Source of the DNA: Clostridia bacterium
Lineage (GTDB): Bacteria > Bacillota > Clostridia > TANB77 > CAG-508
Reading direction: 5' to 3'
Assembly (NCBI GenBank): GCA_017429505.1
Contig: JAFROW010000008.1
Span: forward strand, 503-64,502
Length of the DNA stretch: 64,000 nucleotides
Shown: positions 9,215-62,077 of the stretch, piece after piece
How positions within the stretch are numbered: position 1 is the first letter of the stretch
How the letters are laid out: every line of letters begins with the position of its first letter
The notes under the pieces: model-generated
Seen by the model: the letters and a program-made list of their open reading frames with translations, nothing else
Databases searched by the model: none
Told to the model about the DNA's origin: nothing
Program-made: the position numbers and the translations under genes

Positions 9215-10463
9215 TTAAAATAACTTTCCAGCTGTAAATCCTGTAGAATAAGCAATTTGCAAATTAAATCCCCCTGTATAAGCATCTACATCTATTACTT
9301 CACCTGCAAAATATAGTCCTTTTACAATTTTAGACTCCATAGTTGATGGATTTATTTCTTTTATGTTTATTCCTCCACTTGTTATAATCGCTTCATCTAT
9401 TGGTCTAAAGCCTTTTATTGTAATTTTTAAATCTTTAATTATGTGCACTAATTGTTCTCTTTCCTTTTTGGTTATTTCATTTACTTGTTTTTCAGGATTT
9501 ATTTTTGAAAATTCAATTATCGGATTTATCATTTTTTGTGGTAATAATTTATCTAAGCTATTTTTAAACTTTTTATTTTTCATTTCTGAAAAATCTCTTA
9601 AAATTCTATCATCCAGTTTTTCTTTGCTAAGTGCTGGTTTTAAGTCTATGTGCAATATTATTTTCTTTTTTTGTAATAGATTATCTAAATTTTTGTATCT
9701 TACCAAATGAGATGATCCACTTAAAATTATAGGTCCTGACACACCAAAATGAGTAAAAATCATTTCTCCAAAATCTTCATATATCTTTTTATTTTTTTCT
9801 ATATCCTCTATAAAAATTCCTACATTTCTTAAGCTCAATCCCTGCATTTCTAGGCACAATTCTTTTTCAAAACATGTAAGTGGTACAAGTGATGGCTTTA
9901 TTTCTGTTATTGTGTGTCCTTGTCTTTTGGCAAATTCATATCCATCTCCTGTTGAACCTGTTAAAGGATAGCTTTTGCCTCCTGTTGCAATAATTACTTT
10001 ATCTGCATTGATATTTTGTTTATTTGTTTTAACACCTTTTGCTTGTCCATCTTCTACAATTATATCTTTTACAATTTCTTCAAAAAATATTTTTACTTTA
10101 ACCTCTTTTAGTCTTTTTTCAAAACATTTTAAAACATCTATAGATCTATCTGTTACAGGGAAAATTCTGTTTCCTCTTTCTTCTTTTACTTCTAAGCCCT
10201 GTTTTTTCAAAAAGTGTATAATATCTTTATTTGTGAAATTTTTAAAACTACTATATAAGAACCTTCCGATTACCAGGTATATTTTTTATAAAATCATCTA
10301 TATCTATTGAAGATGTAATGTTACATCTACCTTTGCCTGTTATTAAAAGCTTTTTGCCTAATGCTTTATTTTTTTCTATTATAATTACTTCATTTCCATT
10401 TTCTGCTGCAGTAATTGCAGACATCATTCCTGCAGGCCCTCCGCCAATTATAAGTACTTTCAT
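9215..10463 (-). pseudogene. HI0933/YhiN/BaiN-family NAD(P)/FAD oxidoreductase interrupted by a +1 frameshift (pseudogene, recoded gene or assembly error)
   Basis: GGGPAG and GKGRCNIT in 10251-10463; ATGGKSYP and GGFNLQIAYSTG in 9215-10210; removing the base at 10268 restores ...NIPGNGRFLYSSF... and a 415-aa protein. Confidence 0.85.
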
Positions 10464-45268: not shown

Positions 45269-45535
45269 TTATTTATCTCTATAATGAGAACCACATTGTG
45301 CAATTTCTATTACATCATTTTTTATTCTATAAACTATTCTATTTTTAATGTCTATTCTTCTACTCCAAAACTCTGATAAATCATTAGATAATCTTTCAGG
45401 CTTCCCTATGCCTTTATATCCGTTTCTTTCTATGTCCTTAATTAATTCATTTATTCTTTTTAGAGTTTTCTTATCTTCTTTTTGCCAATATAGATAATCT
45501 TCCCAAGCCCCATCATGCCACATCTTATTCATCAC
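45269..45535 (-). CDS. yoeB: Txe/YoeB family toxin
   Basis: AWEDYLYWQ, GIGKPERL, WSRRI, HY terminus. Confidence 0.93.
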   Translation of the reverse strand: MMNKMWHDGAWEDYLYWQKEDKKTLKRINELIKDIERNGYKGIGKPERLSNDLSEFWSRRIDIKNRIVYRIKNDVIEIAQCGSHYRDK

Positions 45536-45791
45536 TCATCTCTATTATTTCATGCTTGGTTCCTTTTCCATTATCCAAATCTTTTATAGCTTTTTTTAAT
45601 CTTTTCATATTTTGTTCACTATAAAAAGGATCATCTGCAGTTATTTCAAATGGAATTCTTTGTTCTCTTACTGATTTTTTTGCAAATATACAAAATGCTG
45701 TTGTCATTGTCATTCCAACATCCTTACAAAATTTATCAAATTGTTCTTTTAAATTTTTATCCATCCTAATATTCACATTTGTTTGAGTCAT
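45525..45791 (-). CDS. RelB/DinJ family antitoxin
   Basis: VNIRMD..LKEQF..GMTMTTAF..IPFEI..DPFYS; overlaps the toxin start; TTGACA-17-TATAAT promoter at 45814-45842. Confidence 0.92.
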   Translation of the reverse strand: MTQTNVNIRMDKNLKEQFDKFCKDVGMTMTTAFCIFAKKSVREQRIPFEITADDPFYSEQNMKRLKKAIKDLDNGKGTKHEIIEMSDE

Positions 45792-46043
45792 TTTTCTCAC
45801 TCCTTTCTCTTATATTATACTATTATTTATTTACAATGTCAATATATTTATTTGTTTTGTGTATTATATATAATTTATTATAAACATCTTGATATCATTT
45901 ACTTCATTTATTATATACAACATTCCTATTTTTAACATTTTTTGTTTTAAATATATGACATTTTTTCGTCTTGACAATTTTTCTTTTTATTTGTATAATT
46001 TGTTTTGAAAATTTTTTAACTTAAGTGAAAGGATGAAGTAAAA

Positions 46044-47399: not shown

Positions 47400-47690
47400 T
47401 TATTTGTTATTATAATTGCTCACTATCTCTGATGGAATTTGATCAAGTTCTTTTTCATAACCTTCTCTTTCTCTTTTTAACCTATCAATTTGAAATCTTA
47501 ATTCTTCTATAATTGAATCTTTTTCAAATATTATTTTTTTATTTTCTTTTTCAAGATCCCTTGCTTTTTTTAAATATTCAGTTTTAAGATTTGCAATCTT
47601 TTTTTCATTTTCCTCATGTCTTTTTTTCAATTTTTCATTATACTTTAATAACCTATTAAAATTAAATTTTACAAATTCTTCTTTTAACAT
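47400..47690 (-). CDS. Small coiled-coil protein, paralogue of 47816
   Basis: Heptad pattern; KD..I..L..Q...LK.E......L..IP motif. Confidence 0.75.
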   Translation of the reverse strand: MLKEEFVKFNFNRLLKYNEKLKKRHEENEKKIANLKTEYLKKARDLEKENKKIIFEKDSIIEELRFQIDRLKREREGYEKELDQIPSEIVSNYNNK

Positions 47691-47815
47691 TTTTACACCT
47701 TTTCCCCTTCTTTATAATATCTTTAAAACTATATTTCTTATATCAAAAATATATCCAAATTAAAATATATTACCAATAAAGTCACAATCTTAAATTCCAT
47801 TAACCTCATAATTTT

Positions 47816-48112
47816 TTAAAAACTAATTTTTTTATACATTTTTCTAACAGAAAATGGAATATTATTAAGTTGTTTTCTCAAACTATTTGTTTCGTTTTTC
47901 AAATCTTGTAACTGAATTTTTAAAATATTTATTTCATTATCTTTTGAATTTATTATTCCATCATACCTTTGAGCATATTTTTGTATAATATTTTCACTTT
48001 CTTCTATCAATTGCTGAGTTTTATTATAGTCATCGTTTGTCTTGTTTTCCATTAAAACAGCGAAATTATAATGTTTTATAAAATCTTGTTTAAATTGTTC
48101 ATCTATTACCAT
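47816..48112 (-). CDS. Small coiled-coil protein, paralogue of 47400
   Basis: Same motif; SD AGGAG. Confidence 0.75.
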   Translation of the reverse strand: MVIDEQFKQDFIKHYNFAVLMENKTNDDYNKTQQLIEESENIIQKYAQRYDGIINSKDNEINILKIQLQDLKNETNSLRKQLNNIPFSVRKMYKKISF

Positions 48113-48215: not shown

Positions 48216-51020
48216 TCATCTTTCTTTACTCATACTTATATGTTCAATAGCTTTATAAAAATTATTTAAGGTATAATATCCTCCCTTATATTGAAAACTT
48301 TTTGAATTAGGTTTCTCTATTTTATCGTTAAATTTAAATTCATTATTTTTTTCAAAATCAATATCATAACACAATTTTTCGGGCATTTTAATATTTATAA
48401 CTCTAACTTTTCCTTCTTCGTCTGAGATAAATTTGTTATTTTTTATTGTTACATTGTTGCACTTTGTAAGAGTAAGCATTTCCGAGTCTTTGCTACCACA
48501 ATTCTGTAATTCATTACCTTCAAAAATAACTTTATAAACTGTTCCTCTTTTTTCTTCAAATCCGCCAATCTGGACACCATATAAACAATTTAAAATGTAA
48601 TTATTTTTTACTGTAATATTCTCTGTTTCTCCATTTTTTGTTCCAGAATATGCAGTGTTTGCTATTTCTGCACCTATTTCAATTCCGCCCTCACATAAAC
48701 TTACTGTATTATTTTCTATTAAAATATCTTCCCCACCATCTACATAAATTCCGTAAGCTGAATCTGGATCATAAGGAGATTTACACTTACTAACATTACA
48801 ATTTCTAATTGTACCATTTCTTGGTCTATCTAACTTCTTATCTTCACAAGTACCTTGATTTCCACAAATACATATTCCAATATTTGATTTTACATTATTT
48901 GAAGTAATCATAACGTTTTCTATTAAAAAGTTTGTAATATTGCCTTCAAATGAAATTACTTCTGAGAATCCTGCTGCAACATCTTTACACTTGCAATTTT
49001 TAACTACTATGTTATTAATTGGAGTAATACTGCTTCCTACAACATAAATTGCATTAGAGCCTTTATCTGGATCTTTTTCATGCACACATCTTATATCTTC
49101 AAATGTACAATTATCAATTGTAATATCTGAAGTATTATCTCCATAAACCTTAACTCCTTGAGAATTATCTGCTAACATATGTGCAAATACAAATCCTTCT
49201 ACATATATTTTTTTTGAATTTTTTATTGAAAATAAGCTTCCACTTAGATTTTTTCCATCTATTATAACTTCTCCTTCTGCTTTAATGGTTATATCTTGTT
49301 TATTATGTATTTTTACTTTTTCATTATAGTCCCCTTCTTTAACAATTATAGTATCACCTGGTTGTGCTTTTTCTACCGCTTCTGAAATAGTTTTATATGT
49401 TCGTTCATCTTCGCTATCTTCTTTAGATACATAATATATATTTCCATTATTATTTTGAGTGTCTGCACCAGTGTTTTCGGTAGATTGATCAGTTGTAGAG
49501 TTCTGAGATACGTTTTGATGATTTTTTAAATATATTTCTTTTTCTACATCTTGTATAGCTTTTTCTATATTTTCAATCAGCTTCTTTTGTTGTTCTGGGT
49601 TTACTATATGTATAGCAGCATCTTTATTTCCATAAACTTCATCTTCTTCACCTATTATGTCTCCATTTTCATGTGCTAAATTATGTTTATTGTTTGTTAT
49701 TTCTATATAATATGCATAATCTAGCTTGCTACATAATTCTTTACTATGTTCATTAAATTCTTTTAGTTGATTTCTTCCATTTTCATCAAACCTATTTGGA
49801 ACATATTCTTCTTGAACCAAAATAATTGCATTAGGATATTTTTCGTGAGCTTCTTCTATTAATTTGTCCATATCACTCTTTACTAAATCGTTAACTCCCA
49901 TAGATATGTATACTCTTGTAATAGTAGTATTTTCATTTGCAGATTGCATCCATTTTATTCCATCAGCTGTTGTTGCGCTATCTACTGCATAATAGTTTTC
50001 TTCTTTAATACTTTTAGGTAATAAATGCTTTATTCCATTCATTCTAGAGTGAGAGATTATGACCATGTTTTCATTGAAAAAGTCTGAAATATCTCCTGTG
50101 AATGGTTTTCCTTCAATTGTTTTCGCCTCAGAATTATTTGTGTCTGTTGCTTGAGTTTGATTGTCAGATTGGGTTTGAGTTTGGTCTAAAGTTTGAGATA
50201 AATCTGTATTATAATAATATAAGCTTCCATCTTCTATTTCTGGAAATACTAGTGGCTCATCTGTATAATCTAAATAAAATTTCCAACCATAGTTTCCAAA
50301 AATCAAAGTTCCAATCATTCCATATAAAGCAAGTCTAAAATTTCTGTTTTCTTTTTCTTCTCTTATTTTGTTCTCTTCTCTTTTTAATTTCCATTTATTT
50401 AAAGTTCTTTTTATAAAGCCTTCTTTTTTTGGTTCTATTCTTTTTAATTGACTGTCACTTTTTTTTGTTGGAATTTCTTCTTTCTTCTTATCTCTATTCT
50501 GTATAATAGCTGTATCTTCGCCTTTAGTTTCACTTTTATTATCTTCTTTTCTTTTTTCAGAATCAGATTTGACTACATTTACAGCTTTTTCTTCTACTAT
50601 TCCTTCAGAAACTATTTCTCTTTCTTTTGAATCAACTTCAACAACATTTACAGCTGTATCTTCTACTTTTTCATCAGGAACTATTTTTCTTGTTTTTTGT
50701 TTTTGCTTTGATTGTGTTTTTGCCTGCTTGGTTAAATTACTAGGATTTTTTTGTCCTTTTATTATCTCATCTGGATCTATTCCAAATTTTCTTATAAAAA
50801 CTTGCTTTGTAGGATATATATATGGTGAATGAATTGACTTTCCTCTTTTATTTAAAAACTCAATTTTATATTTAGAAGATTCTTTTTTCACTTTTAATTC
50901 ACAGACTTTTTCAAGCTTTTTTCTTAGTTCATAAAAATCTTCCCTATCACTATATTTAAAATCAAAGTATTTTTTATTTTTTTCTATTATATCCCCTTTT
51001 TTACTACTATACGTAGACAT
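48216..51020 (-). CDS. Single-pass membrane protein: SGNH-like domain plus right-handed parallel beta-helix (pectin-lyase fold)
   Basis: TM at about aa 230-250; SHSRM/MGVND/AIH SGNH-like blocks; YKTISEAVEKAQPGDTIIVKEGDY and YGIYVDGGEDILIENN repeats. Confidence 0.8.
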   Translation of the reverse strand: MSTYSSKKGDIIEKNKKYFDFKYSDREDFYELRKKLEKVCELKVKKESSKYKIEFLNKRGKSIHSPYIYPTKQVFIRKFGIDPDEIIKGQKNPSNLTKQAKTQSKQKQKTRKIVPDEKVEDTAVNVVEVDSKEREIVSEGIVEEKAVNVVKSDSEKRKEDNKSETKGEDTAIIQNRDKKKEEIPTKKSDSQLKRIEPKKEGFIKRTLNKWKLKREENKIREEKENRNFRLALYGMIGTLIFGNYGWKFYLDYTDEPLVFPEIEDGSLYYYNTDLSQTLDQTQTQSDNQTQATDTNNSEAKTIEGKPFTGDISDFFNENMVIISHSRMNGIKHLLPKSIKEENYYAVDSATTADGIKWMQSANENTTITRVYISMGVNDLVKSDMDKLIEEAHEKYPNAIILVQEEYVPNRFDENGRNQLKEFNEHSKELCSKLDYAYYIEITNNKHNLAHENGDIIGEEDEVYGNKDAAIHIVNPEQQKKLIENIEKAIQDVEKEIYLKNHQNVSQNSTTDQSTENTGADTQNNNGNIYYVSKEDSEDERTYKTISEAVEKAQPGDTIIVKEGDYNEKVKIHNKQDITIKAEGEVIIDGKNLSGSLFSIKNSKKIYVEGFVFAHMLADNSQGVKVYGDNTSDITIDNCTFEDIRCVHEKDPDKGSNAIYVVGSSITPINNIVVKNCKCKDVAAGFSEVISFEGNITNFLIENVMITSNNVKSNIGICICGNQGTCEDKKLDRPRNGTIRNCNVSKCKSPYDPDSAYGIYVDGGEDILIENNTVSLCEGGIEIGAEIANTAYSGTKNGETENITVKNNYILNCLYGVQIGGFEEKRGTVYKVIFEGNELQNCGSKDSEMLTLTKCNNVTIKNNKFISDEEGKVRVINIKMPEKLCYDIDFEKNNEFKFNDKIEKPNSKSFQYKGGYYTLNNFYKAIEHISMSKER

Positions 51021-51047
51021 CTTTCTTCTCCCTATAATTATTCTTAA

Positions 51048-52865
51048 CTATTTTTCCTCTCTAGGATCAACATCAGTTTTCACTAAAATTACATCTTTAT
51101 AATCTCCACTATCTACTACATTTGAACTTATTTTATTATAACTTATTGGAACACGTAAATGTTGTAGTTTTCTTTGTCTATCTAATTCTCTTCTTATAAA
51201 TTCACTTTGTATTCTTTTAGCCTTTTTTCTTCCTTTTCTTTTTTTATTTGCATTTACGAAAAGCACAACAGCTAATTTCGCAATATTTTGCGCAGTTTCC
51301 TTGGCTTTCTTTATTGCATCTGTCTTCCATATAAAACCTTTAGTTATTATATTACTTTGAATTACAACTTCATCTTTTTTCAAATCTTCTTCCATATCTT
51401 CTTCTATAGATAATGAACCATCTTCTTCATATGTAATTATTTCTTTCTTTTTTTCCTCTATTTTCATTGAAATTGCAGGCTGATTACCACGTGTATCAAT
51501 AACACTATTTATTTTTCTTAAATAACTTCTATAATTTCTCAATTTTTCTCCAATAGGGCCTTCTTCAAAACTATGTTTAGCTTTATCATATAAATAATCA
51601 TAGAACTCATTTGGTTTTCCGTTAAAGTCTCTTACTAATCGTATCATCTCTTTTGTGTATGGCATATTTAATTTTGCCCATTCTCTTCTTGCAGATTTTG
51701 TTTCATATCCTCCAAATGGATTAGTTATTATTATTTCCCAATCTATATTATCATCTTTAAAATCTTTTTTTTCATCTTTTGTTTTAAATTCATATCCTAA
51801 ATCCATTAGTTCTCTTAAAGTCTTATGTGCTCCATATTCTATAAACTTAATTTGTTCTCCTGTTGGTATATAATTTCCATCACTATCAAGTTCAAACCCT
51901 TTTTTTGTTTTTCTTACCTTATTTTTCCTACATAAAATTTTTATTGTTTGACTAGATATTTTGTTTAAAAATTCACATTGTTTCTCATTAAGAAAAGCTA
52001 CTGACTTAGTTTCCTTATCAACTGCATAATATTTTTCACCATCAAAAAGTATAGTTATAGAGTTATATTCATCCTTCATCCAATCTGTTAATTCTTTTAC
52101 TGCAGTTAAACTATATTTATTTCCTTCAGAATCAAGTTCTTGCATATAAGTTTCTAGAATATAATTTATTTCGTTTGCTAATCGATTTTCATTTGTTAAA
52201 CCTTGCATGCTTGAAATATACCTTGAAAACTTATATGGAAGACAATGTCTTTGTCCATTAAACTCTACAATAAATGTTCCATCTGTTAATACATCTATAA
52301 TATATTTAGGTACATTTTTGTTGTTTATAGTTTCTAATGTATCTGTATCTAGCTCTTTATCTGAAGGATTTAAAAACATGTTTTTTATAATGTTTTGTTT
52401 AATAGCTTTTATATCTCTATATATTGAGTTTTCATCATCTTTATCATATATATCAAGTTTTTCTATAAGATGTATTAATTCTTGATCAGTAACATATATT
52501 TCTTTTCCTTTTAAACTAATCTTACATATTCTATTTTTATCTATTTGAATAGAATCTCCAGACTCTTTATATAATTCAATTATTTGAAATGGAATTTCTC
52601 CATTTTCTGTTTTTTCAAGTTCTTCACGAAAAAATCTTCTATATGATATTTGTTGACTAGTTCTTCTTGCCTCTTCTACACTTTTTGCCATTGGAACTTG
52701 ATCACATTCTTTAATAAATTCTTCCATAGCTTCTATAAGAGTAAGTTTTAACTTTTTTAGTTTTCTTCTATCCGCTTCTGTATTGCTTTCTATTCTAATC
52801 ATATTAGCATTTATATTTTTCTTTCTATTACTAATAAATTGTAAAAGCTCTTCTAAACTTGGCAT
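51048..52865 (-). CDS. Hypothetical protein, 605 aa
   Basis: Long ORF, SD GAGGAGG, closely spaced with its neighbours; no recognisable motif. Confidence 0.8.
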   Translation of the reverse strand: MPSLEELLQFISNRKKNINANMIRIESNTEADRRKLKKLKLTLIEAMEEFIKECDQVPMAKSVEEARRTSQQISYRRFFREELEKTENGEIPFQIIELYKESGDSIQIDKNRICKISLKGKEIYVTDQELIHLIEKLDIYDKDDENSIYRDIKAIKQNIIKNMFLNPSDKELDTDTLETINNKNVPKYIIDVLTDGTFIVEFNGQRHCLPYKFSRYISSMQGLTNENRLANEINYILETYMQELDSEGNKYSLTAVKELTDWMKDEYNSITILFDGEKYYAVDKETKSVAFLNEKQCEFLNKISSQTIKILCRKNKVRKTKKGFELDSDGNYIPTGEQIKFIEYGAHKTLRELMDLGYEFKTKDEKKDFKDDNIDWEIIITNPFGGYETKSARREWAKLNMPYTKEMIRLVRDFNGKPNEFYDYLYDKAKHSFEEGPIGEKLRNYRSYLRKINSVIDTRGNQPAISMKIEEKKKEIITYEEDGSLSIEEDMEEDLKKDEVVIQSNIITKGFIWKTDAIKKAKETAQNIAKLAVVLFVNANKKRKGRKKAKRIQSEFIRRELDRQRKLQHLRVPISYNKISSNVVDSGDYKDVILVKTDVDPREEK

Positions 52866-52898
52866 TTTTTACCTCCTCGTTTTTTATCTTGCTTATTA

Positions 52899-54323
52899 TT
52901 ATCTATCTATACCTTTTTCAAATATTTTTCCAACATTCGAATTTTTGGGTTGTATCGTTGTATTTTCTAAAAAGTTATTTTCAAAAGCTGTTGTCGTTGT
53001 ACTTCTTTCAAATGCATTTTTAAAAGCTTTTGTTTTTCTTCCCTCAAATGCATCTTCAAAAGCACTTGCTACTTTTTCTATACCTTTATAATCTATAAGC
53101 TTTGGGTCTAATCTAATATATTCTTTTAGTAGATATGTAGCTGCTTTAGCTCCACTTTCAAACTCTTGTTCATTATAAATATTTACTGTACTTTTTCCTT
53201 TTTTCACAAAAATATCATAGCTTCCTTTAAGATAATAAGCCATTTGTGGTTCAATATCATCAAATTTATAATCTGTACCATTTTCTGTATTATATTTTTC
53301 TAAAAATTTTACATAATCTTCCTTTAAAGAATATGACCATTGCATTACTCCAAAAAATTTGAATGCATCTCTTGAAACTGCATTAGGATTAAGTCCTGAT
53401 AAAAATAGCATATCTACTAGTGTTCCTATATTTTGTTCATCTTTTACTCCTTCACTTTTTAAATATGCATAAGCTTTAGATGCTACTTCTATCTGTTTGT
53501 CTGTTAAATTTAAAGTATTTTCATTTTCTAATTTTTGTTTTGCTTCTTGATAGTACATATATTTATATATTGCTTTTTCATATTTTTCTTTCAAAAGTTG
53601 TCTATCTTCTTTACTTATTTCTCTACCAATGCCTAATTCTTCATCTATAATACGATCGAAATTTTGATTTTTTATCATCCTGTCCCAAGGCACCTTTGCA
53701 AACCAAAGAGGTCTTATATCTATATTATTATTATTTCCTATATTGTATTTTAACGGAAATCTATCTACTTTCCCCTCTATTCCTGTATTACCTTCAACTG
53801 TTGAAAACTTGCCGTCTTTATAATCTATAACTATTCCCATATGATCTATAAAGTCAGGATTACTATCTGAATCGAAAAATACAAGATTTCCTGCTTGTGG
53901 AATATGACTTGCATCATTTTTTACTATTAATCCTTGATCTTTATACCATTTTAAAAATTTAGCAATGTTTAAATATTTAGCTCCCTGTGGTATTACATCT
54001 TCTGATATTCCACTTCGTTTTGCACTGTCCATTATAAATTCTGCAGAACTTACATCACTTATTTCACCTATATGGCTTTGAGCTTCTTTTACATATCTTT
54101 CTATTAAAAGTTGTCTGTCTTTTTTACTTATGTCTCTACCAATGCCTTGTTCCTCATCTTCATTTTGAGTATTGTTTTGATTTACAATGCTTACATGTTG
54201 TAAATTTGGTGTTAATGCAACCATAATTGCTGCTATAATTCCTGCTAATCTAACACTCATTCCTCTTATTATTCCTTTTTTACTTTCATTTTTATTTTCC
54301 ATTTCTTTCAATCTCCTTTTCAT
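52899..54323 (-). CDS. CHAP plus phage-tail-lysozyme-like protein with both catalytic residues substituted
   Basis: Paralogue of the C-terminal half of 54330 (EDVIPQGA, VFFDSD, KFSTVEGNT, WFAKVPW); Cys replaced by Ser and Glu by Leu. Confidence 0.8.
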   Translation of the reverse strand: MKRRLKEMENKNESKKGIIRGMSVRLAGIIAAIMVALTPNLQHVSIVNQNNTQNEDEEQGIGRDISKKDRQLLIERYVKEAQSHIGEISDVSSAEFIMDSAKRSGISEDVIPQGAKYLNIAKFLKWYKDQGLIVKNDASHIPQAGNLVFFDSDSNPDFIDHMGIVIDYKDGKFSTVEGNTGIEGKVDRFPLKYNIGNNNNIDIRPLWFAKVPWDRMIKNQNFDRIIDEELGIGREISKEDRQLLKEKYEKAIYKYMYYQEAKQKLENENTLNLTDKQIEVASKAYAYLKSEGVKDEQNIGTLVDMLFLSGLNPNAVSRDAFKFFGVMQWSYSLKEDYVKFLEKYNTENGTDYKFDDIEPQMAYYLKGSYDIFVKKGKSTVNIYNEQEFESGAKAATYLLKEYIRLDPKLIDYKGIEKVASAFEDAFEGRKTKAFKNAFERSTTTTAFENNFLENTTIQPKNSNVGKIFEKGIDR

Positions 54324-54329
54324 TTTTTA

Positions 54330-56726
54330 TTATCTTTCCTCACTTCTAAAGGCTAATCCTTTTTTATTTTCTTCAATTATTTGTCCATAGTATCTTTCTT
54401 TTTTTTCTTCTATCTCTTTATCTTCTGCTTTACATAAAAATTCTTCTACTTGTTTTACAAATTTGTTCCAATCAAAATTAGTAACATCTTTTTCATTTAA
54501 TTGTTTTGTATAACTTGATAAAATTATATTTTTTTGATTTTTTTTATTAAAAGATATATTTTTTTGATGATTTTTTATTATATTGTTATAGAACTTTTGC
54601 GCTGTTTCACCTCTGTTTGGATCAATATATTCTGGTCTTTCCCAATGTTCACAAAACCACATTGCTGCTTCTCTTGCATCTTTAAAATCTGTTTCCAAAT
54701 ATGCTTCAATTGTACGTTTATCACCATATGTATCTGGATCTCCATATAATAAATAATCCATTTGCACTAAGGTATTTCTCCAATCATAATTAGTGCCATG
54801 TTCTTTATTATATTTTTCAGTATACTCTAGTAAAGCTGTTTTTCGTCCCTCTGTCCATTGGCAATATCCTATTGAATCATATCCATCAGAAGATTTAGCT
54901 GCTATATGAAATGACGATTCATGATAAATATTTGCCCATATTCCAGCCATATGTATTAAATCTATATTTTTTTGTCTTAAAATATTAGCAACATCTTGAG
55001 CATTTTTTGATTGTTCATTATTAAATCCTAATCCTATGTCTACATCATCTGCTGTTATTTCACCTTTTATTGTTACTTGTGTTTGGCTTTTCTCTTGTTC
55101 TGGTACCATATTATTCCAAGGCACCTTTGCAAACCACATAGGCTTCATTTTTCCACTATTGTCAACTTTATTATCTCCAATTTTATATTTCAAATCATAT
55201 ACTGATACCTTCCCGCCTGTAGTATTTCCTTCAACTGTTGAAAATTTACCTTCTTTTGAATCTGTTACAACTCCTACATGATTTATCCATTCAGAATCAC
55301 CATCAGAATCAAAAAACACAATATCTCCTTCTTGTGGAATATAACTTCCATCATTTTTTACTATTAACCCTTGCTTTTCAAAAAACTTATACATCACTGC
55401 ACAACTTGCATATTGAGCTCCCTGTGGTATTACATCTTCAGGCACTCCATTATCATATGCCAAACGCATTATAGCGGCTGCACAATACTGATCTTTTGCT
55501 GAAGAACCTAATCCTAAATATTTAGTATATTTTTCGTCTTCATTTGTATCCCCCTTACGATTTTTAAATGCTTGTACATAATTATGTCTTGCATTTTTCT
55601 GCATTTGAGAAGACGTAAAATTTGAAACACTTTGAGATGATGTGAAATTTGAAACATAATTATTGTTATTATTTGTATAATAGTTTCCACCTTGATACCC
55701 AATTGCTTCGTCTAATTCTTCTTGAATTGCCAAACTACTGCTTGTTTCTACCAAATCTTTCGTTTCAATATTTATTCCAAAACCATTTAAAGAATATGTA
55801 GTTACATATAGTTTATTTGTATTAATGTCATATTGAACATCTGAGCCAAGTACTCTGTTTTTTGAATCACCTTTTTTATAGTATTCAGAAATACCTTTTG
55901 CATATATATAAATTGGTTGTTTATTTAATGCCATAGAATTTTTCTCATTTATTTGGTCTTTTATTTCTTTTGCTTCAACTTGGTACTCTTTTTCATCTAT
56001 CCAATAAATAGCTTCATTACCTATAAGCTTTATTTCTGTTCCCTTCTTTAATGTTTGCTCACCAAAAGCTTCTGTTTTTATTTTTACATCTTGTTTTGTT
56101 TTAAATGTATTTGCAATATTTAAATCAACATCATTTTTGGAAATTAATGCATATTTATCATTCCTAAAATCATATTTAATTAAATAATAGTCGCCATTTT
56201 CGACTTTTATTTTTCTTCCTGCAAAAAGCTTTTTTGATGGTATTTGTACCATTTTTTGTTCTTCTTTATCAGCAAATTTATATCCAAACATATTACATGG
56301 TATTGCTTGAATATTACTATCATCTTTAGTCGTAAAGAACCAATACTGTTTTTGCCATTGCAATGCTGTTGCATAAGCTTCAGGAGAAATGTTTTCTTCT
56401 GTCACAGTATCAGGAATTCCCAATGCTTTTCGAAATTTACCCATGTCTCCGAATTCTTTTTTTGCTGTTTCATTTAAGTCAAACATTTTAAATCCAACAT
56501 TTTCGACTAGTTGAAAAGTTTCATCCGTCATAACATCCCATAATATAGATGGACCGTTATCTATTTCTTTTTCTAGTTCTTCACTTATTTGCTCCTTACT
56601 TGAAAACTCAAATTTATCAACAAAAGTATGCCAATTGAGTAAAAGAGTAGCTGTTAAACCTGCCAATGCACTTTTTAAAATAATTTTTGGAATTTTAATA
56701 TTTTCATCTTCATTATTATCTTTCAT
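54330..56726 (-). CDS. Exported peptidoglycan hydrolase: CHAP amidase plus phage-tail-type lysozyme
   Basis: N-terminal hydrophobic segment; YCAAAI..PQEGDIVFF..HVGVV..VEGN; AGIWANIYHESS..GYCQWT..R..QMDYL..WERP. Confidence 0.87.
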   Translation of the reverse strand: MKDNNEDENIKIPKIILKSALAGLTATLLLNWHTFVDKFEFSSKEQISEELEKEIDNGPSILWDVMTDETFQLVENVGFKMFDLNETAKKEFGDMGKFRKALGIPDTVTEENISPEAYATALQWQKQYWFFTTKDDSNIQAIPCNMFGYKFADKEEQKMVQIPSKKLFAGRKIKVENGDYYLIKYDFRNDKYALISKNDVDLNIANTFKTKQDVKIKTEAFGEQTLKKGTEIKLIGNEAIYWIDEKEYQVEAKEIKDQINEKNSMALNKQPIYIYAKGISEYYKKGDSKNRVLGSDVQYDINTNKLYVTTYSLNGFGINIETKDLVETSSSLAIQEELDEAIGYQGGNYYTNNNNNYVSNFTSSQSVSNFTSSQMQKNARHNYVQAFKNRKGDTNEDEKYTKYLGLGSSAKDQYCAAAIMRLAYDNGVPEDVIPQGAQYASCAVMYKFFEKQGLIVKNDGSYIPQEGDIVFFDSDGDSEWINHVGVVTDSKEGKFSTVEGNTTGGKVSVYDLKYKIGDNKVDNSGKMKPMWFAKVPWNNMVPEQEKSQTQVTIKGEITADDVDIGLGFNNEQSKNAQDVANILRQKNIDLIHMAGIWANIYHESSFHIAAKSSDGYDSIGYCQWTEGRKTALLEYTEKYNKEHGTNYDWRNTLVQMDYLLYGDPDTYGDKRTIEAYLETDFKDAREAAMWFCEHWERPEYIDPNRGETAQKFYNNIIKNHQKNISFNKKNQKNIILSSYTKQLNEKDVTNFDWNKFVKQVEEFLCKAEDKEIEEKKERYYGQIIEENKKGLAFRSEER

Positions 56727-56735
56727 ATTCTTTCC

Positions 56736-59603
56736 CTATTTTTCTATTTCATTTTGATTGTCTTTATCTTTTTCTCCAAGTTTTCCTATTAATGTAAATC
56801 GTGCTTCAAGCTCACCTTGAGTTTGTTCTTTTACTTCTGTTCCTAAACATTTTTTATTATCTTCTGTTATTTTTATATTTTCTGGAGAACATATAGTCAT
56901 TTTTTTTCTACCAGTTCTAGCTCCCCATACATATTTATTAGTTGTGTTGTCATAATATATATGTATATCATTTGTTTCTATAAATACTTCTTTCCATCTA
57001 TCATTATATACAAGTAAATCTGAACTTGGTATAGTACCTGCAACATCCTTTCCAATAATAAGTTCACTTACAATTGCTGTATTGCCCACAATTAATATTT
57101 CCCTTCCTGCTTGTACATCATAAGCAGTTCCGTTTTGATCCGTTAATTTAGTATTTCTTATAACTAAAGCAGTACGTACAGTTTTTAATAAACTTCCATT
57201 ATTTACTAATGCATATATTTCTTTTATATTGCCATTTTCATCGACTATTTCATCTTTTATTACTCTACAATTTTTTTCTGCTGTATCAAACTTTGGATTT
57301 ACAGCATAATATGCAGGATACATTTTTTCCGAATTTAGCGAATATAACTGATTTGGATCTTCATAACTACCATTTTCATCACATATTATTCCTTGTGTAT
57401 TTGGCATTGGAATAACCATTGAATATTTCCTTTTTTCTCCTAACAGTCCAGCTACTGTTCCAAATAGTCTTTCCGCAAAATTTGGAATATCTCTTGCTCT
57501 TGGTTCTACTAGATTTTCTCCAGTTGTGTTTAATTTAGATAGAGTTGTAGCACCATTTTGCATATTTACATCATCTATTTTTATTATTCTTACACCATCT
57601 GATGTAGTTGCACCTTGTCTTGTGTTCAAAGTATTATTATCGCTTGTATTGGCTTTATATATCATATCTCCTACTTCTTTTTTATCTTTTATCTGTGCCA
57701 CAATTGCTTGTTGTTGTTCCACATTTAGTTCTTTTTTTGGTTTATAACTTCTTACTTTTGCATCTTTTGGAATTTGCAAATTAAATGTACTTATTGTATT
57801 TCCTTGAGTATCTTGAATCACATAAGGCACAATTTCAACATTCTGATATATTTCCGGAGTAATTACACCATGTGCTGATACCGAAAACTTTACACCATTA
57901 TTATATATAACACTATAAACAATTCCAAATTTTCCAGCTCTTGCAACTCTAATAGTTGACTCTGTTGTCGGGAATTTTTTAGAATTATCTTGCCACCAAT
58001 TTGAAATAGTATATTTTGGTTGAATTGCTACAATAAATTCTTCTATATTACTAGTTTTCATAGAATGGTGACTTAATTTAAATATATCAGCCCTAACATC
58101 AATCCCTTCTTCTAAAAGCTCTTTTTCTAAACCTGCTTCAATATCTCCACAAGTTAAGTAACGAATTTCTTTTCCATCTAAAGTTTGAACAGATATCCTT
58201 AATACTAAAGATTTATTATTTGTATAAGATTCATTATTATAATCTTTTCTTTTGTTATTTGGGTTATAAAGTACTTCAAATTTAGCCTTTCCTATATAAA
58301 ATGTATCATATTGTTTTAGTCTTACTACTCTTATACCCTTTTGTTTTGCAATTCTTTCTAACTTAGAATACATACTTTCTTTTCCTTCAGGCAAATATAA
58401 TGTATCTACTTTATAATTTTTCATTAAATATACTGCATTGCCCCAATGATCATCATGATTATGTGTAATTAATATATCAAAATGTTTATCTTTATAGTTT
58501 TTATCATTCATAAATTTAATAACAGAATCTCTTAAATCATCTTCCGAGGTATCTATCATTAAATAATGTCCATCACTTCCTATCATTGTCATATCACCAT
58601 GTGCTGTTCTTTTTATTTTCGGTTGTCCAGCACACTTTATGTTAGCACAATCAATTGTCATTAAAGTTTCATCTTGAGTAAAATTTACTATTTCAGTTGT
58701 ATTGGTTTGTTCATTATTGGTTGCTGTTTTACTATTTGTTTCTGTTACATTATCAGGTAATTTTTCATTATTAGATGAATGCTCATTATTTGTATTACTT
58801 AAAACATAACTAACATCAATCTCTTTTTCCTCATAGACTAATTTTCCTTTATCTGGATCAAAATATGCCTTAGTTGAATTTGGAAAGTCAAAAACCTTAA
58901 GGTGTATTATTTTTCTTTCTATACCTTTAGTACTCTTTGAATTAGCTTCGTGAACTTTCCCTATATTCACACCTTCTCCTTTTTTATGCCCAGAACTGCA
59001 TGAAACTTTTTTACCATTTCCTAAATAAAAATATACATGATTATTACGTCCACTTCCGTGATGTTCCCAAATAATATCTCCTGGAGACGCATTAGAATAA
59101 TCCCATTTTTCTCCTTTTTCAAAGTGAGCTACATCTACAGAATTTGGACAACCTCCATAGCCCCATTTTTCAGATTTAACATGTTCATTTAATATTCCTT
59201 CATGTTCCAATACTCTAAATATATACCAAGAACAATCTGAATAGCCTTTTTCTAATTTACCATGGTTTCTAAAATCTCCATGAGAAGAATCTATATAGGT
59301 AATATGTCCTCCCTTTTGAGTCGAAAAACTACATGCATAATTTAAAGTATCCTCAAGTTTTTTGATTGCTTCCAGATATTTTTCTGCATCAGTATTTGAG
59401 TTTTCTTCTATTTCTGTATTAGATTTTCCATCATTATTAGTAGTATTTGCCTCATTATTTTGTTCTATCTCTATAGCATAAACATTTTCTCCTATCGGAT
59501 TACTTGGTAATTGTGGAGTACTTCCTAGCATTGTTAAAGCAAGAGCTGCTGTACCCAATCTTATTCCTCTTTTTTTTGATTTTTTTTCAATTGGATTTTT
59601 CAT
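56736..59603 (-). CDS. Exported NlpC/P60 peptidase plus ComEC/Pce-type metallo-beta-lactamase-fold hydrolase
   Basis: Signal-like N-terminus; SDCSWYI..PGDII..HVYFYLGNG; THNHDDH, NNKSLV, GDIE, SHH. Confidence 0.87.
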   Translation of the reverse strand: MKNPIEKKSKKRGIRLGTAALALTMLGSTPQLPSNPIGENVYAIEIEQNNEANTTNNDGKSNTEIEENSNTDAEKYLEAIKKLEDTLNYACSFSTQKGGHITYIDSSHGDFRNHGKLEKGYSDCSWYIFRVLEHEGILNEHVKSEKWGYGGCPNSVDVAHFEKGEKWDYSNASPGDIIWEHHGSGRNNHVYFYLGNGKKVSCSSGHKKGEGVNIGKVHEANSKSTKGIERKIIHLKVFDFPNSTKAYFDPDKGKLVYEEKEIDVSYVLSNTNNEHSSNNEKLPDNVTETNSKTATNNEQTNTTEIVNFTQDETLMTIDCANIKCAGQPKIKRTAHGDMTMIGSDGHYLMIDTSEDDLRDSVIKFMNDKNYKDKHFDILITHNHDDHWGNAVYLMKNYKVDTLYLPEGKESMYSKLERIAKQKGIRVVRLKQYDTFYIGKAKFEVLYNPNNKRKDYNNESYTNNKSLVLRISVQTLDGKEIRYLTCGDIEAGLEKELLEEGIDVRADIFKLSHHSMKTSNIEEFIVAIQPKYTISNWWQDNSKKFPTTESTIRVARAGKFGIVYSVIYNNGVKFSVSAHGVITPEIYQNVEIVPYVIQDTQGNTISTFNLQIPKDAKVRSYKPKKELNVEQQQAIVAQIKDKKEVGDMIYKANTSDNNTLNTRQGATTSDGVRIIKIDDVNMQNGATTLSKLNTTGENLVEPRARDIPNFAERLFGTVAGLLGEKRKYSMVIPMPNTQGIICDENGSYEDPNQLYSLNSEKMYPAYYAVNPKFDTAEKNCRVIKDEIVDENGNIKEIYALVNNGSLLKTVRTALVIRNTKLTDQNGTAYDVQAGREILIVGNTAIVSELIIGKDVAGTIPSSDLLVYNDRWKEVFIETNDIHIYYDNTTNKYVWGARTGRKKMTICSPENIKITEDNKKCLGTEVKEQTQGELEARFTLIGKLGEKDKDNQNEIEK

Positions 59604-59626
59604 TTTTTATTCCTTCTTATTATCTA

Positions 59627-62008
59627 TTAATAATCTATCTCATCTCCGTCCCATTCTTCTCCTAATGCATCAAATGAGCTTTTTTCTGTGTCATCTGTAG
59701 TTTCTTCACTTTCTTCTAAATAATCTTCTTCATCTTGACTTTCATACTCTTCTTCGTAACTATCTTCATCTTCATATTCATCTTCTGTTTCATCATCAAG
59801 TGAATATTCTTGGTCATTTTCTTGCGCTATTAAATCTTTAAGAAGTTCTCCGTCTTTTAGACTAATACTACCAAAATGATCATTTTCATCTTCTACAGTA
59901 TATCCAGAGCTATGTTCACATAATGTAATATGTACTCCTTCTCCGAATATAAATTCTGGAATACCTTCTATATTAGTTGATGGATAAACATACAATTGTC
60001 CAATATTCTCATCTATCGTATATTCTCCCACTGGTGTATATCCTTGAGTTATATTATCTGTCATTTCTTCTTTTTTGTATTTATCTATACTTGAATTAAT
60101 TTTTCCTGTTTCTTCTCCTTCTATTGTAGTTACCATCATTCTTGGTTGTTCATTATTTTGTTCTTCTGACATTATTCCTATAGCATTAATCTTTTCTCCA
60201 TCTGCTGTAATCTCTTTACTTCCTAAAAAAGTCATTCCGCTTGGAATTATATTCTCTTCTTGTTCAGCTGTAGTAACTTCTTCTTTAGTTGTTAAAAATG
60301 TTGGAATTAATGTAACTAATGATATTTTATTTTTTCCATCATTATATTCCTCCATTATATAATCACCTATTTCCATCTTCTCGAGTTTTTTTGCTGATAT
60401 TTCACTTGTATAAACATTATCACCATCATTATAGAAATAAGTATAGTAATCATTTTCATTTGCATCTTGAGGATTATAATCTAAAACATCTATGTAACTT
60501 CCACCTTCTATCTCAATGTCATCTGTTACGTCTAATACTGTATTTCCATCTACACTCATTCTAGTTATTACAGGAGTTATCTCATACCTATCTACATTTT
60601 CTACAACTCCATCTTCTGTTATAATAACATTATCTTCTGGAATTACAAATTCATCTCTATCCATTTGAAGATAACCTAATTTTGTTTCTTTAGAAATAGG
60701 ATCTGTATATTTAACAATATAATATTTCCTATTATCTTCTTGTAAAACTTCTGGCATTTCTTGTTTTGTGTCTTCAAAAGCCTTCTCTTCCTCACTTCCT
60801 AATTCAGTAACAGTTTCTGTAGATGTATTTTTTAAAGAATCTGATTTATTATAAAAAAAAGTTTTTACAGATAAAAATGCAGTTATCATCATACCTGCTG
60901 CTCCTAAGATAAGTATAGGCATTCTTTTAAACTTTCTATCTACTCCGATATTTTTTGGTAAATTTTTTAACCTTCTTTTATTATTTTGTTCTGTAAAAAT
61001 ATCATTTACTATACTTGTTGCTTTTGTTTTTACTTTTGATGTTTGATAATTTGCAATCAATGTTTTTAAATCTTCTACACTTATTTCACACAAATTTCCA
61101 TAATTATCAAAAACTCTATCTTTTTTTAATTTTTCATATTCATCTTTTTTTAAATCTAAAATTGGTTGAAGAATTTTTTTCATTAAAACATCTTTACTAA
61201 TCTCATTTTCTTCAATTGCAAGAACAAGTTTTTTTAAAACAGATATATCTCCATGTTTATTAACTATTTTCGAAATCATATTAACAAATTCTTTTAAATG
61301 TACTGGTTTATCAATACATTCAAATTTATCCATAAAATGCACAGCAATTTCTAAAATTTCATTTCCTTTCGGATCACATGCAATCTTGCTAATAACAATT
61401 ACAAAATTACGATTATTAACTTTATTATTGTCACCAAATTTTTCACTTATTGCTTTTATAATTTTCTTAGTCTCTTCTAAATTAATTTTTGAGTAACTTT
61501 TTTTTACTCCTTCAATAATACCTTTCTCAATATTATATACATAATCTCCTTCTGCATCTCTTTCTGAATCACTTTTGATATAGTTATAATCATATGTATC
61601 ATACAAATAATTTGTTAAATATGCTAAATCTTTGTATATAGATTCACACTTAGATTTTCTTACTATTTTACTTTCTAAAAGTTCTCTTAAAACTTCTACT
61701 GAATTATCATCTATATGTTGAACAGAATCTATACTTTCTGCGTTTACTTTTTTGTTATACTTTAATGCATCAAAGTAAATTCCTCGCCATGGAAAACGTT
61801 CTTCATTTTCATTGTTACTACTTATGTATTCTTGAGATTGTTCTTGTTCTTGAGCTTCTAAATCTGATGAATTTATTGATTGTGCATCTAAATTATCTGA
61901 TGAAGAATTTGATTGTGGTTGTTCCTCTCCATTATTAAATTCAACTATTACCTTTCTCGCTCCAACTTTTTGAACTTGTGTTAAAAAATCTTGTTCATTA
62001 ATATTCAT
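59627..62008 (-). CDS. Single-pass membrane protein with large helical N-terminal part, beta-rich C-terminal part and acidic tail
   Basis: TM MPILILGAAGMMITAFLSV mid-protein; E/D-rich last ~60 aa; SD GGAGGAG. Confidence 0.8.
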   Translation of the reverse strand: MNINEQDFLTQVQKVGARKVIVEFNNGEEQPQSNSSSDNLDAQSINSSDLEAQEQEQSQEYISSNNENEERFPWRGIYFDALKYNKKVNAESIDSVQHIDDNSVEVLRELLESKIVRKSKCESIYKDLAYLTNYLYDTYDYNYIKSDSERDAEGDYVYNIEKGIIEGVKKSYSKINLEETKKIIKAISEKFGDNNKVNNRNFVIVISKIACDPKGNEILEIAVHFMDKFECIDKPVHLKEFVNMISKIVNKHGDISVLKKLVLAIEENEISKDVLMKKILQPILDLKKDEYEKLKKDRVFDNYGNLCEISVEDLKTLIANYQTSKVKTKATSIVNDIFTEQNNKRRLKNLPKNIGVDRKFKRMPILILGAAGMMITAFLSVKTFFYNKSDSLKNTSTETVTELGSEEEKAFEDTKQEMPEVLQEDNRKYYIVKYTDPISKETKLGYLQMDRDEFVIPEDNVIITEDGVVENVDRYEITPVITRMSVDGNTVLDVTDDIEIEGGSYIDVLDYNPQDANENDYYTYFYNDGDNVYTSEISAKKLEKMEIGDYIMEEYNDGKNKISLVTLIPTFLTTKEEVTTAEQEENIIPSGMTFLGSKEITADGEKINAIGIMSEEQNNEQPRMMVTTIEGEETGKINSSIDKYKKEEMTDNITQGYTPVGEYTIDENIGQLYVYPSTNIEGIPEFIFGEGVHITLCEHSSGYTVEDENDHFGSISLKDGELLKDLIAQENDQEYSLDDETEDEYEDEDSYEEEYESQDEEDYLEESEETTDDTEKSSFDALGEEWDGDEIDY

Positions 62009-62048: not shown

Positions 62049-62077
62049 ATTATATCATATTTTCTTTTTTTAGTCAA
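62049..62077 (-). promoter_or_regulatory. Sigma-A promoter heading the 62008-48216 gene run
   Basis: TTGACT-17-TATAAT with extended TG. Confidence 0.7.

Follow-up and report, generated by a model that had tools for sequence, protein, structure and literature searches.

A degenerate lysozyme lineage with an optional, cysteine-less CHAP cassette beside a putative wall hydrolase in uncultured gut Clostridia

Wall-hydrolase domains that do not cut are already known from RipD and from the LytM domain of PrgK. PrgK of pCF10 is a VirB1-like protein in which a gp13-like muramidase is joined with a CHAP domain, and in which the LytM and CHAP domains, degenerate or silent as hydrolases, reduce muramidase activity (10.1101/2024.02.15.580431). 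RipD of Mycobacterium, an NlpC/P60 protein, is described as binding peptidoglycan without catalysis (PMC12067865). In gp13-type lysozymes the catalytic Glu lies at the end of helix 2 (PMC10394673), and in the CHAP domain of LysGH15 the nucleophilic Cys starts a helix, with C54S abolishing lysis (PMC4022735). Here we analysed a 64,000-nucleotide stretch (the window) of a Clostridia bacterium assembly (GCA_017429505.1, contig JAFROW010000008.1, positions 503 to 64,502) from TANB77, an uncultured reduced-genome group (PMC11680825). In it, a gene for a CHAP-lysozyme protein (A) is followed by a paralogue (B), which an earlier sequence-only reading suggested to be a selected pseudoenzyme with both active sites lost. 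On sequence evidence, we find that the lysozyme of B degenerated long ago and that its operon is restricted to the species and recombines in blocks; the double inactivation of B is a property of one recombinant allele and not the state of the family.

Gene A (54330-56726, minus strand) encodes 798 amino acids (aa) comprising an N-terminal hydrophobic segment, a region with weak SH3b-like leads (scores <0.9, template-modelling (TM) score <0.5), an intact CHAP domain (55116..55493, minus), an intact phage-tail-lysozyme domain (54582..55007, minus) and a terminal Arg. The CHAP domain scored 28.5 bits against Pfam CHAP (cut-off 26) and has Cys415 (55482-55484, TGT), His483 (55278-55280), Glu499 (55230-55232) and Asn501. 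The lysozyme domain scored 80.7 bits against Phage_lysozyme2 (cut-off 28.2) and carries the helix-end Glu603 (54918-54920, GAA) together with the family-invariant Asn, Gln, Arg and Glu residues, including Asn599, Arg628, Glu696 and Arg705; the only family-invariant position changed is that of Glu662, which is Gly in both A and B. Among A-family records, the Cys was present in 21 of 21 and the Glu in all 20 that span its position. The most likely role of A is that of a wall hydrolase with two domains, acting after export.

Gene B (52899-54323, minus strand) lies 6 nucleotides (nt) downstream of A and encodes a hydrophobic N-terminus, a CHAP cassette with Ser in place of Cys (53685..54056, minus), a helical linker, a degenerate lysozyme domain (53016..53486, minus) and a terminal Arg. 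The open 474-codon frame described in the sequence-only reading was confirmed, though translation probably begins at Met8 (54302), giving 467 aa, in agreement with database record P0016 and the majority of orthologues. Likewise, every codon which that reading had named in A and B was correct: the Cys and Glu codons of A are as given above, and the aligned codons of B are TCT for Ser93 (54045-54047) and TTA for Leu308 (53400-53402). In the BLASTP alignment (325 columns, 34% identity, E 1e-50), S93 of B stands opposite C415 and L308 opposite E603, and there are no gaps nearby. A frameshift-like slip at MLFLSG was considered and dropped, the segment aligning residue for residue with alleles that have Glu. 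In an independent study, a contig (run X4, record 12) carries the same Leu block and shows 2 differences over 255 nt, so the Leu codon is not an assembly error.

As the earlier reading had noted, the CHAP cassette of B retains His161 and the Glu-Gly-Asn of residues 177-179; the equivalent of Asp468 is Asn. Both proteins matched the two Pfam families, B with 33.7 bits for Phage_lysozyme2 (cut-off 28.2) and a sub-threshold 24.1 bits for CHAP (cut-off 26). The whole B protein has zero cysteines, so no alternative Cys, a possibility that the earlier reading had allowed for, could replace the missing nucleophile. An AlphaFold model of B residues 72-445, built from 66 sequences, predicted both folds confidently, with a mean predicted local distance difference test (pLDDT) score of 86.4; in it Ser93 opens a helix and Leu308 lies at a helix end, predicted positions that match the published sites of the CHAP nucleophile and the gp13-type Glu. 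When compared with the PDB using Foldseek, the model matched phi29 gp13 best (3csq; probability 1.00, E 0.004), and the CHAP structures 5udm and 4olk also had probability 1.00, with E values of only 0.006 and 0.03. Solved structures queried at the sequence level, with the B alignment and with the A alignment, yielded chance matches only.

The evidence for an old loss lies in the lysozyme domain. We derived family conservation from 52 distant lysozyme domains obtained by a representative search, to which 9 B rows were aligned. Asn599 was found in 52/52 of the distant domains, Arg628 in 51/52, Glu696 in 52/52 and Arg705 in 49/52; with Glu603, all are 94-100% conserved. All four are missing from 9/9 B rows, and across the B records Asn599 and Arg628 are gone in 22/22 and Glu696 in the 20/20 that span it. 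In the window's allele, Asp304 stands at the Asn599 position (53412-53414) and the equivalents of Arg628, Glu696 and Arg705 are gone. B resembles phi29 gp13 (PF18013; 3csq; PMC10394673) in fold and in the position of the helix-end Glu, and differs from it in lacking these four residues in all alleles, and the Glu in the window's allele, and in lying outside a phage tail module. A distant B-like protein, P0044, consists of a hydrophobic N-terminus, a CHAP remnant, an intact lysozyme, a degenerate lysozyme and a terminal Arg. Its second lysozyme groups with B (100/97) at 36-40% identity; Asn599, Glu696 and Arg705 are missing from it, and Glu603 and Arg628 are present. Because the invariant residues are lost in every B allele, with or without the Glu, and the distant P0044 shares two of these losses, B appears to be an old degenerate lysozyme. 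Support for a non-catalytic paralogue therefore comes from the old losses of Asn599, Arg628 and Glu696, and not from the two substitutions on which the earlier reading had relied. As P0044 joins an intact and a degenerate lysozyme in one polypeptide, the pairing of an active with a degenerate domain occurs twice.

We next compared B alleles across strains. The homologue search yielded 10 B-like clusters with 22 member records, the window's gene being counted twice. The combination of Ser-CHAP with Leu was found in 1 of the 10 clusters, the window's own. The P0004 cluster has Ser-CHAP with Glu, the P0005 cluster has Leu and no CHAP, and seven clusters have Glu and no full CHAP, such that all four combinations exist and the two features reassort. 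Overall, 8/10 clusters keep the Glu and 8/10 are without the CHAP cassette; among the 20 database records besides the window's own, Glu was present in 18 and a full CHAP was missing in 18. In the tree, the Leu allele is a tip nested among Glu alleles, and it was found in at least two studies and two haplotypes. Pieces carrying Ser-CHAP were found in runs of 4 studies, and the raw contigs of run X4 contained both joints that skip the CHAP cassette and pieces that carry it.

Alleles also differed block by block. Along the protein, P0007 and P0011 are 100, 100, 97, 48 and 73% identical in successive blocks, and the window's B and P0004 are 74, 99, 61, 45 and 82% identical. One exchangeable block (53287..53408, minus) contains the Glu/Leu codon; in run X5 its 122 nt are swapped, in frame, for a diverged 119 nt. 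The window's form is likely a composite of two parts: a CHAP cassette without the Cys, taken over from A at a later time, and a version of the lysozyme block in which Glu recently became Leu. Exchange is not confined to B: the segment 54858-54929, which holds the lysozyme Glu of A, behaves as another such block, with a diverged version of the same length in run X5, and P0014-type A alleles carry a very different lysozyme in which all invariant residues are retained.

The CHAP cassette has a different history. In distant CHAP domains the Cys is found in 116/118 and Asp468 in 118/118, where B has Ser and Asn. The earlier reading had described near-identical blocks flanking the lost sites; this holds for CHAP, where B and A share 81% DNA identity over 157 nt and 54% protein identity, and fails for the lysozyme, where B is 26% identical to A (23-30% for B against A lysozymes overall). 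In the tree, B CHAP is nested within A alleles with support 100/99 (the bootstrap is not fully settled, and recombination limits what domain trees can show). A 74-nt direct repeat brackets the cassette, with the 5' copy at 54086..54159 and the 3' copy at 53573..53646 (86% identical); in CHAP-less alleles it is present as a single copy. Only one base separates TGT from TCT, and CHAP remnants lie at other positions in P0012 and P0044. We infer a single capture of CHAP from A between the direct repeats, then loss of the Cys by one base change, then fast drift or retuning; the lysozyme of B is much older. B resembles RipD in having a papain-like wall-hydrolase domain without the catalytic Cys and in being a paralogue of active enzymes. 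RipD, in contrast, is described as a conserved single-domain pseudoenzyme not adjoining ripAB (PMC12067865), whereas the Ser-CHAP of B is an optional cassette that keeps the His and Glu and is carried on a second degenerate domain.

Several observations suggest that the B frame is maintained. All 4 large DNA joints inside B are in frame (net 39, 3, 465 and 465 nt, the last two being one event type), although a 2-nt insertion close to the B stop codon was found in one low-depth contig. Among B alleles the linker and N-terminal segment are conserved, and the terminal Arg is present in 20/20 full-length B-type records. If all 107 differences between the A and B CHAP sequences were neutral, the chance of finding no stop would be 0.005, an upper bound on the evidence as some arose in A. 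The ratio of non-synonymous to synonymous substitution rates (dN/dS) was estimated for Ser-CHAP from the window's allele and the X10 allele, whose residue changes match P0004, with 29/32 differences listed. In a post hoc split, residues 161-228, the His/Glu beta-core, gave 0.06 (4 synonymous, 1 non-synonymous). For comparison, A gave 0.29 for CHAP and 0.11 for the lysozyme between the window and L010, a metagenomic locus that ends before the B lysozyme, so that dN/dS within B covers parts outside the lysozyme only.

Other results weigh against B as a maintained, non-cutting protein. The dN/dS comparison called for by the earlier reading gave 0.51 for the Ser-CHAP as a whole (9 synonymous, 20 non-synonymous), which between these two strains is not significantly below 1 (p=0.086); the other part of the post hoc split, residues 72-160, gave 0.91, and the N-terminal 50 codons of B compared with L010 gave 1.05. 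B-invariant columns are not enriched at family-conserved positions (17/40 vs 35/101, p=0.25). The stem of B CHAP is long, at 0.73 changes per site, compared with single branches of at most 0.15 among A alleles. In P0044 and in 18/22 B records the Glu603 equivalent persists, as would be expected if some catalytic role remained. P0044 itself is a single record from contigs of at most 2110 bases, and the protein database favours intact frames, so that allele counts overstate intactness. We conclude that selection likely maintains the B frame, while selection on each dead site is not shown. The selected pseudoenzyme of the sequence-only reading is partly supported, as a maintained, probably non-catalytic paralogue; the losses of Cys and Glu are not jointly conserved, and the case for a conserved pseudoenzyme with both sites dead is weaker than it first seemed.

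The explanation we favour, to which we assign about an even chance, is that B is an old duplicate of the A lysozyme that acts as a non-cutting peptidoglycan binder, tethering or damping its active neighbour A. Selection would keep the B frame and its domains would still bind peptidoglycan. A and B would be co-transcribed and exported together, by Sec through their hydrophobic N-termini or by a type IV secretion system (T4SS) operon through their Arg-ended tails. B could then occupy wall sites or cover the A cleft, limiting or aiming lysis, as inactive PrgK domains do in cis, and block swapping may retune which wall is bound. PrgK differs in that its regulation takes place within one protein, encoded on a conjugative plasmid and with the CHAP Cys kept (10.1101/2024.02.15.580431), whereas B is a separate tandem paralogue; moreover, in A and B the order is CHAP then lysozyme, and there are no conjugation genes among the neighbouring genes scanned. 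The strains provide a natural series, with no CHAP or a dead one and with Glu or Leu, plus a relative with intact and degenerate lysozymes in tandem. This series makes it testable how a hydrolase duplicate becomes a binder or regulator, and what roles the invariant Asn, Arg and second Glu play in the phage-tail-lysozyme family.

The main rival, which we consider rather unlikely, is that proteins of the B family still cut glycans, their chemistry or specificity having changed; they could, for instance, work like lytic transglycosylases with a single Glu, or act on modified walls. A Glu-Ser pair persists in 18/22 records and in P0044 across a tree path of about two substitutions per site; Gly620 and Gln655 are found in 9/9 B rows, and Gln623 and Trp624 in 8/9; and B alleles vary more within the lysozyme domain than within the linker. 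The Leu allele would then be a recent loss, or Asp304, one helix turn before the lost Glu, might take over as the acid, in keeping with the finding that Asp occupies the Asn599 position only together with Leu (4/4 Leu records, 0/18 Glu records). Points against an altered enzyme are the disappearance from every allele of three to four residues that are 94-100% conserved in the 52 distant domains, and the persistence of the Leu allele in at least two studies and two haplotypes. Far less credible is that the CHAP of B has become a serine hydrolase, the Ser-His-Glu triad that the earlier reading had offered as an alternative. Ser93, His161, Glu177 and Asn179 are present in both CHAP-bearing haplotypes, and in the model Ser93 starts a helix as a nucleophile would be expected to. 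Yet a single altered base turns the Cys codon into the Ser codon, there has been drift at Asp468 and around the nucleophile, 8/10 clusters do without the cassette, and the same Cys-to-Ser replacement abolishes the activity of the LysGH15 CHAP (PMC4022735), all of which makes us very doubtful of such a triad.

B might instead have no function at present: as a redundant duplicate on which selection has relaxed, it would be in slow decay while recombination shuffles it. The long CHAP branch and the non-significant dN/dS fit this, as do the absence of CHAP from most strains, the mere remnants in P0012 and P0044, the accessory nature of the operon, and a chance of 0.20 that 32 neutral Ser-CHAP changes would produce no stop. 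We nevertheless find decay distinctly improbable, given that frames have stayed open in the degenerate lysozyme lineage across divergence to 36-40% identity, that large indels in raw contigs are all in frame, and that the linker, N-terminal segment and terminal Arg are conserved; the lack of stops among the differences between A and B CHAP points the same way, within the bound given above. The position of B directly downstream of A in every locus seen (6 nt away in the window and in L010), and variation of both genes by blocks, could alternatively indicate a dedicated immunity protein that binds the catalytic domains of A and protects the producer. This seems to us very improbable, as B carries the same predicted export features as A, hydrophobic N-terminus and terminal Arg alike, and the pairing is loose: the A lysozymes of the window and L010 are near-identical (dN 0.036), but the partial B of L010 is of the P0008/P0009 N-terminal type, and the P0008/P0009 lysozymes differ strongly from that of the window's B. 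The nearby FemAB-like and alanine-racemase genes were also considered as dedicated immunity and rejected, since 38/40 genomes of the genus carry the FemAB-like gene and searches with two genes of the operon did not find the operon there.

A and B are part of a six-gene unit (48216..62008, minus) with spacers of 6-33 nt, made up of a 793-aa orphan, a 955-aa protein with NlpC/P60 and a ComEC-like metallo-beta-lactamase fold, A, B, a 605-aa orphan and a 934-aa protein with weak GDSL and beta-helix matches. A candidate sigma-70-like promoter with an extended -10 lies ahead of the unit (62049..62077, minus; 11/12 match); it is a consensus match only, and promoter-like sites overall were not commoner than in shuffles (110 vs 114). 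The 955-aa neighbour (56736-59603) and its counterpart in L010 (L010:3914-6973) have the metallo-beta-lactamase-fold and C-terminal parts in common, while the N-terminal domain is swapped, being NlpC/P60 in the window and longer, with no NlpC/P60 match, in L010.

The unit had a narrow distribution. Searches of 337 further genus genomes detected neither B nor the 793-aa gene; no B orthologue turned up in 60 relatives, the 337 genus genomes or 400 family genomes, which gave only weak CHAP matches, or lysozyme matches located in long open frames, and a search for shorter B homologues found none. A scan of genome contigs with the A alignment gave no match, and a scan of metagenomes returned one locus, L010. 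The runs that contain the stretch are gut samples, several of them from cattle or sheep, and in RNA runs only 5-6% of its words were present. In the closest sister genome, G244, the FemAB-like protein is 98.6% identical and unrelated genes occupy the same chromosomal slot (L135:1488-12173 in G244:C11). Five of these end in an acidic-plus-Arg tail, among them two that match Zeta_toxin and one for a RIO-like kinase, and they are interleaved with AraC-like, Nudix-like and metallo-hydrolase-like genes. The A/B cluster is variable, and its proteins are probably exported. Our literature search, which did not reach most subscription papers or any supplements, found no paper on the A/B locus.

Acidic-plus-Arg C-terminal tails were found on 3/6 operon genes compared with 27/1650 open reading frames (ORFs) genome-wide (p=8e-5, the motif having been chosen after seeing these genes), on 5/14 genes in the G244 slot (p=2e-6), and on 3/3 Mob_Pre relaxases but 0/7 other relaxase-like ORFs. 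Such a tail may be a secretion (translocation) signal, a role for which the data here are a correlation only. Plain Sec export of A and B through their hydrophobic N-termini is also allowed by the sequences.

The genome also encodes a VirB2-VirB3-VirB4-VirB6-like operon beside parB and gidB and near dnaA, with several pilin paralogues and a PrgI/VirB3 gene (G000:C8:287913-295730, L031), and a stand-alone VirD4 beside a release-factor-like gene (G000:C4:108337-110442, L032). In the species collection, 585 stretches matched VirB4, the best 80 at 77-99%; among these best 80 of 585 loci, five VirB4-neighbour genes were present in 74-79, and three relaxase/coupling-protein queries gave no match. 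A conserved operon of this kind with several pilin paralogues resembles the relaxase-free chromosomal T4SS of Patescibacteria (PMC12102498), although the host here is a Clostridia lineage; our literature search found nothing joining TANB77 and VirB4. In this genome, the matches to VirD4 and VirB4 all fall outside the window, and no T4SS gene families were present among the scanned neighbours of A and B; neither gene lies inside a T4SS gene cluster. Any link between the operon and A/B is only a correlation, through the C-terminal motif.

A variable island of Arg-tailed genes and a core secretion operon could, on this correlational footing, explain how these uncultured gut Clostridia live. In one scenario, which we regard as unlikely, these genome-reduced gut Clostridia, as epibionts or predators, would deliver strain-variable wall-attacking effectors into other bacteria via the core relaxase-free T4SS, with B as a polymorphic dead decoy delivered together with A. 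The swappable cleft blocks and optional dead CHAP of B would then aim A at a given wall or soak up the inhibitors that the target has, and selection, not decay, would account for the further change in which the Glu disappeared and an Asp appeared one helix turn from it.

Elsewhere in the genome, a protein of 1242 aa (L034; G000:C8:120908-124636) has NlpC/P60 in two stretches and a Phage_lysozyme2 domain that scores as intact, and could be the wall hydrolase that serves the core secretion system; of 400 family genomes, 17 had long open frames that match lysozyme. A WXG100 protein, coiled-coil genes and a 1531-aa gene adjoin the stand-alone VirD4 (G000:C4:97713-106916, L032), possibly as a type VII secretion locus. 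Within the window, the six-gene unit is followed by two small coiled-coil ORFs of 96 and 98 aa (47400-48112), for which Pfam gave only weak coiled-coil matches. A flavoprotein-like gene at 9215-10310 seems to be split over two frames or to lack its N-terminus. Finally, the two-gene unit beside the FemAB-like gene (45269-45800) resembles a RelB/YefM-YoeB toxin-antitoxin pair.

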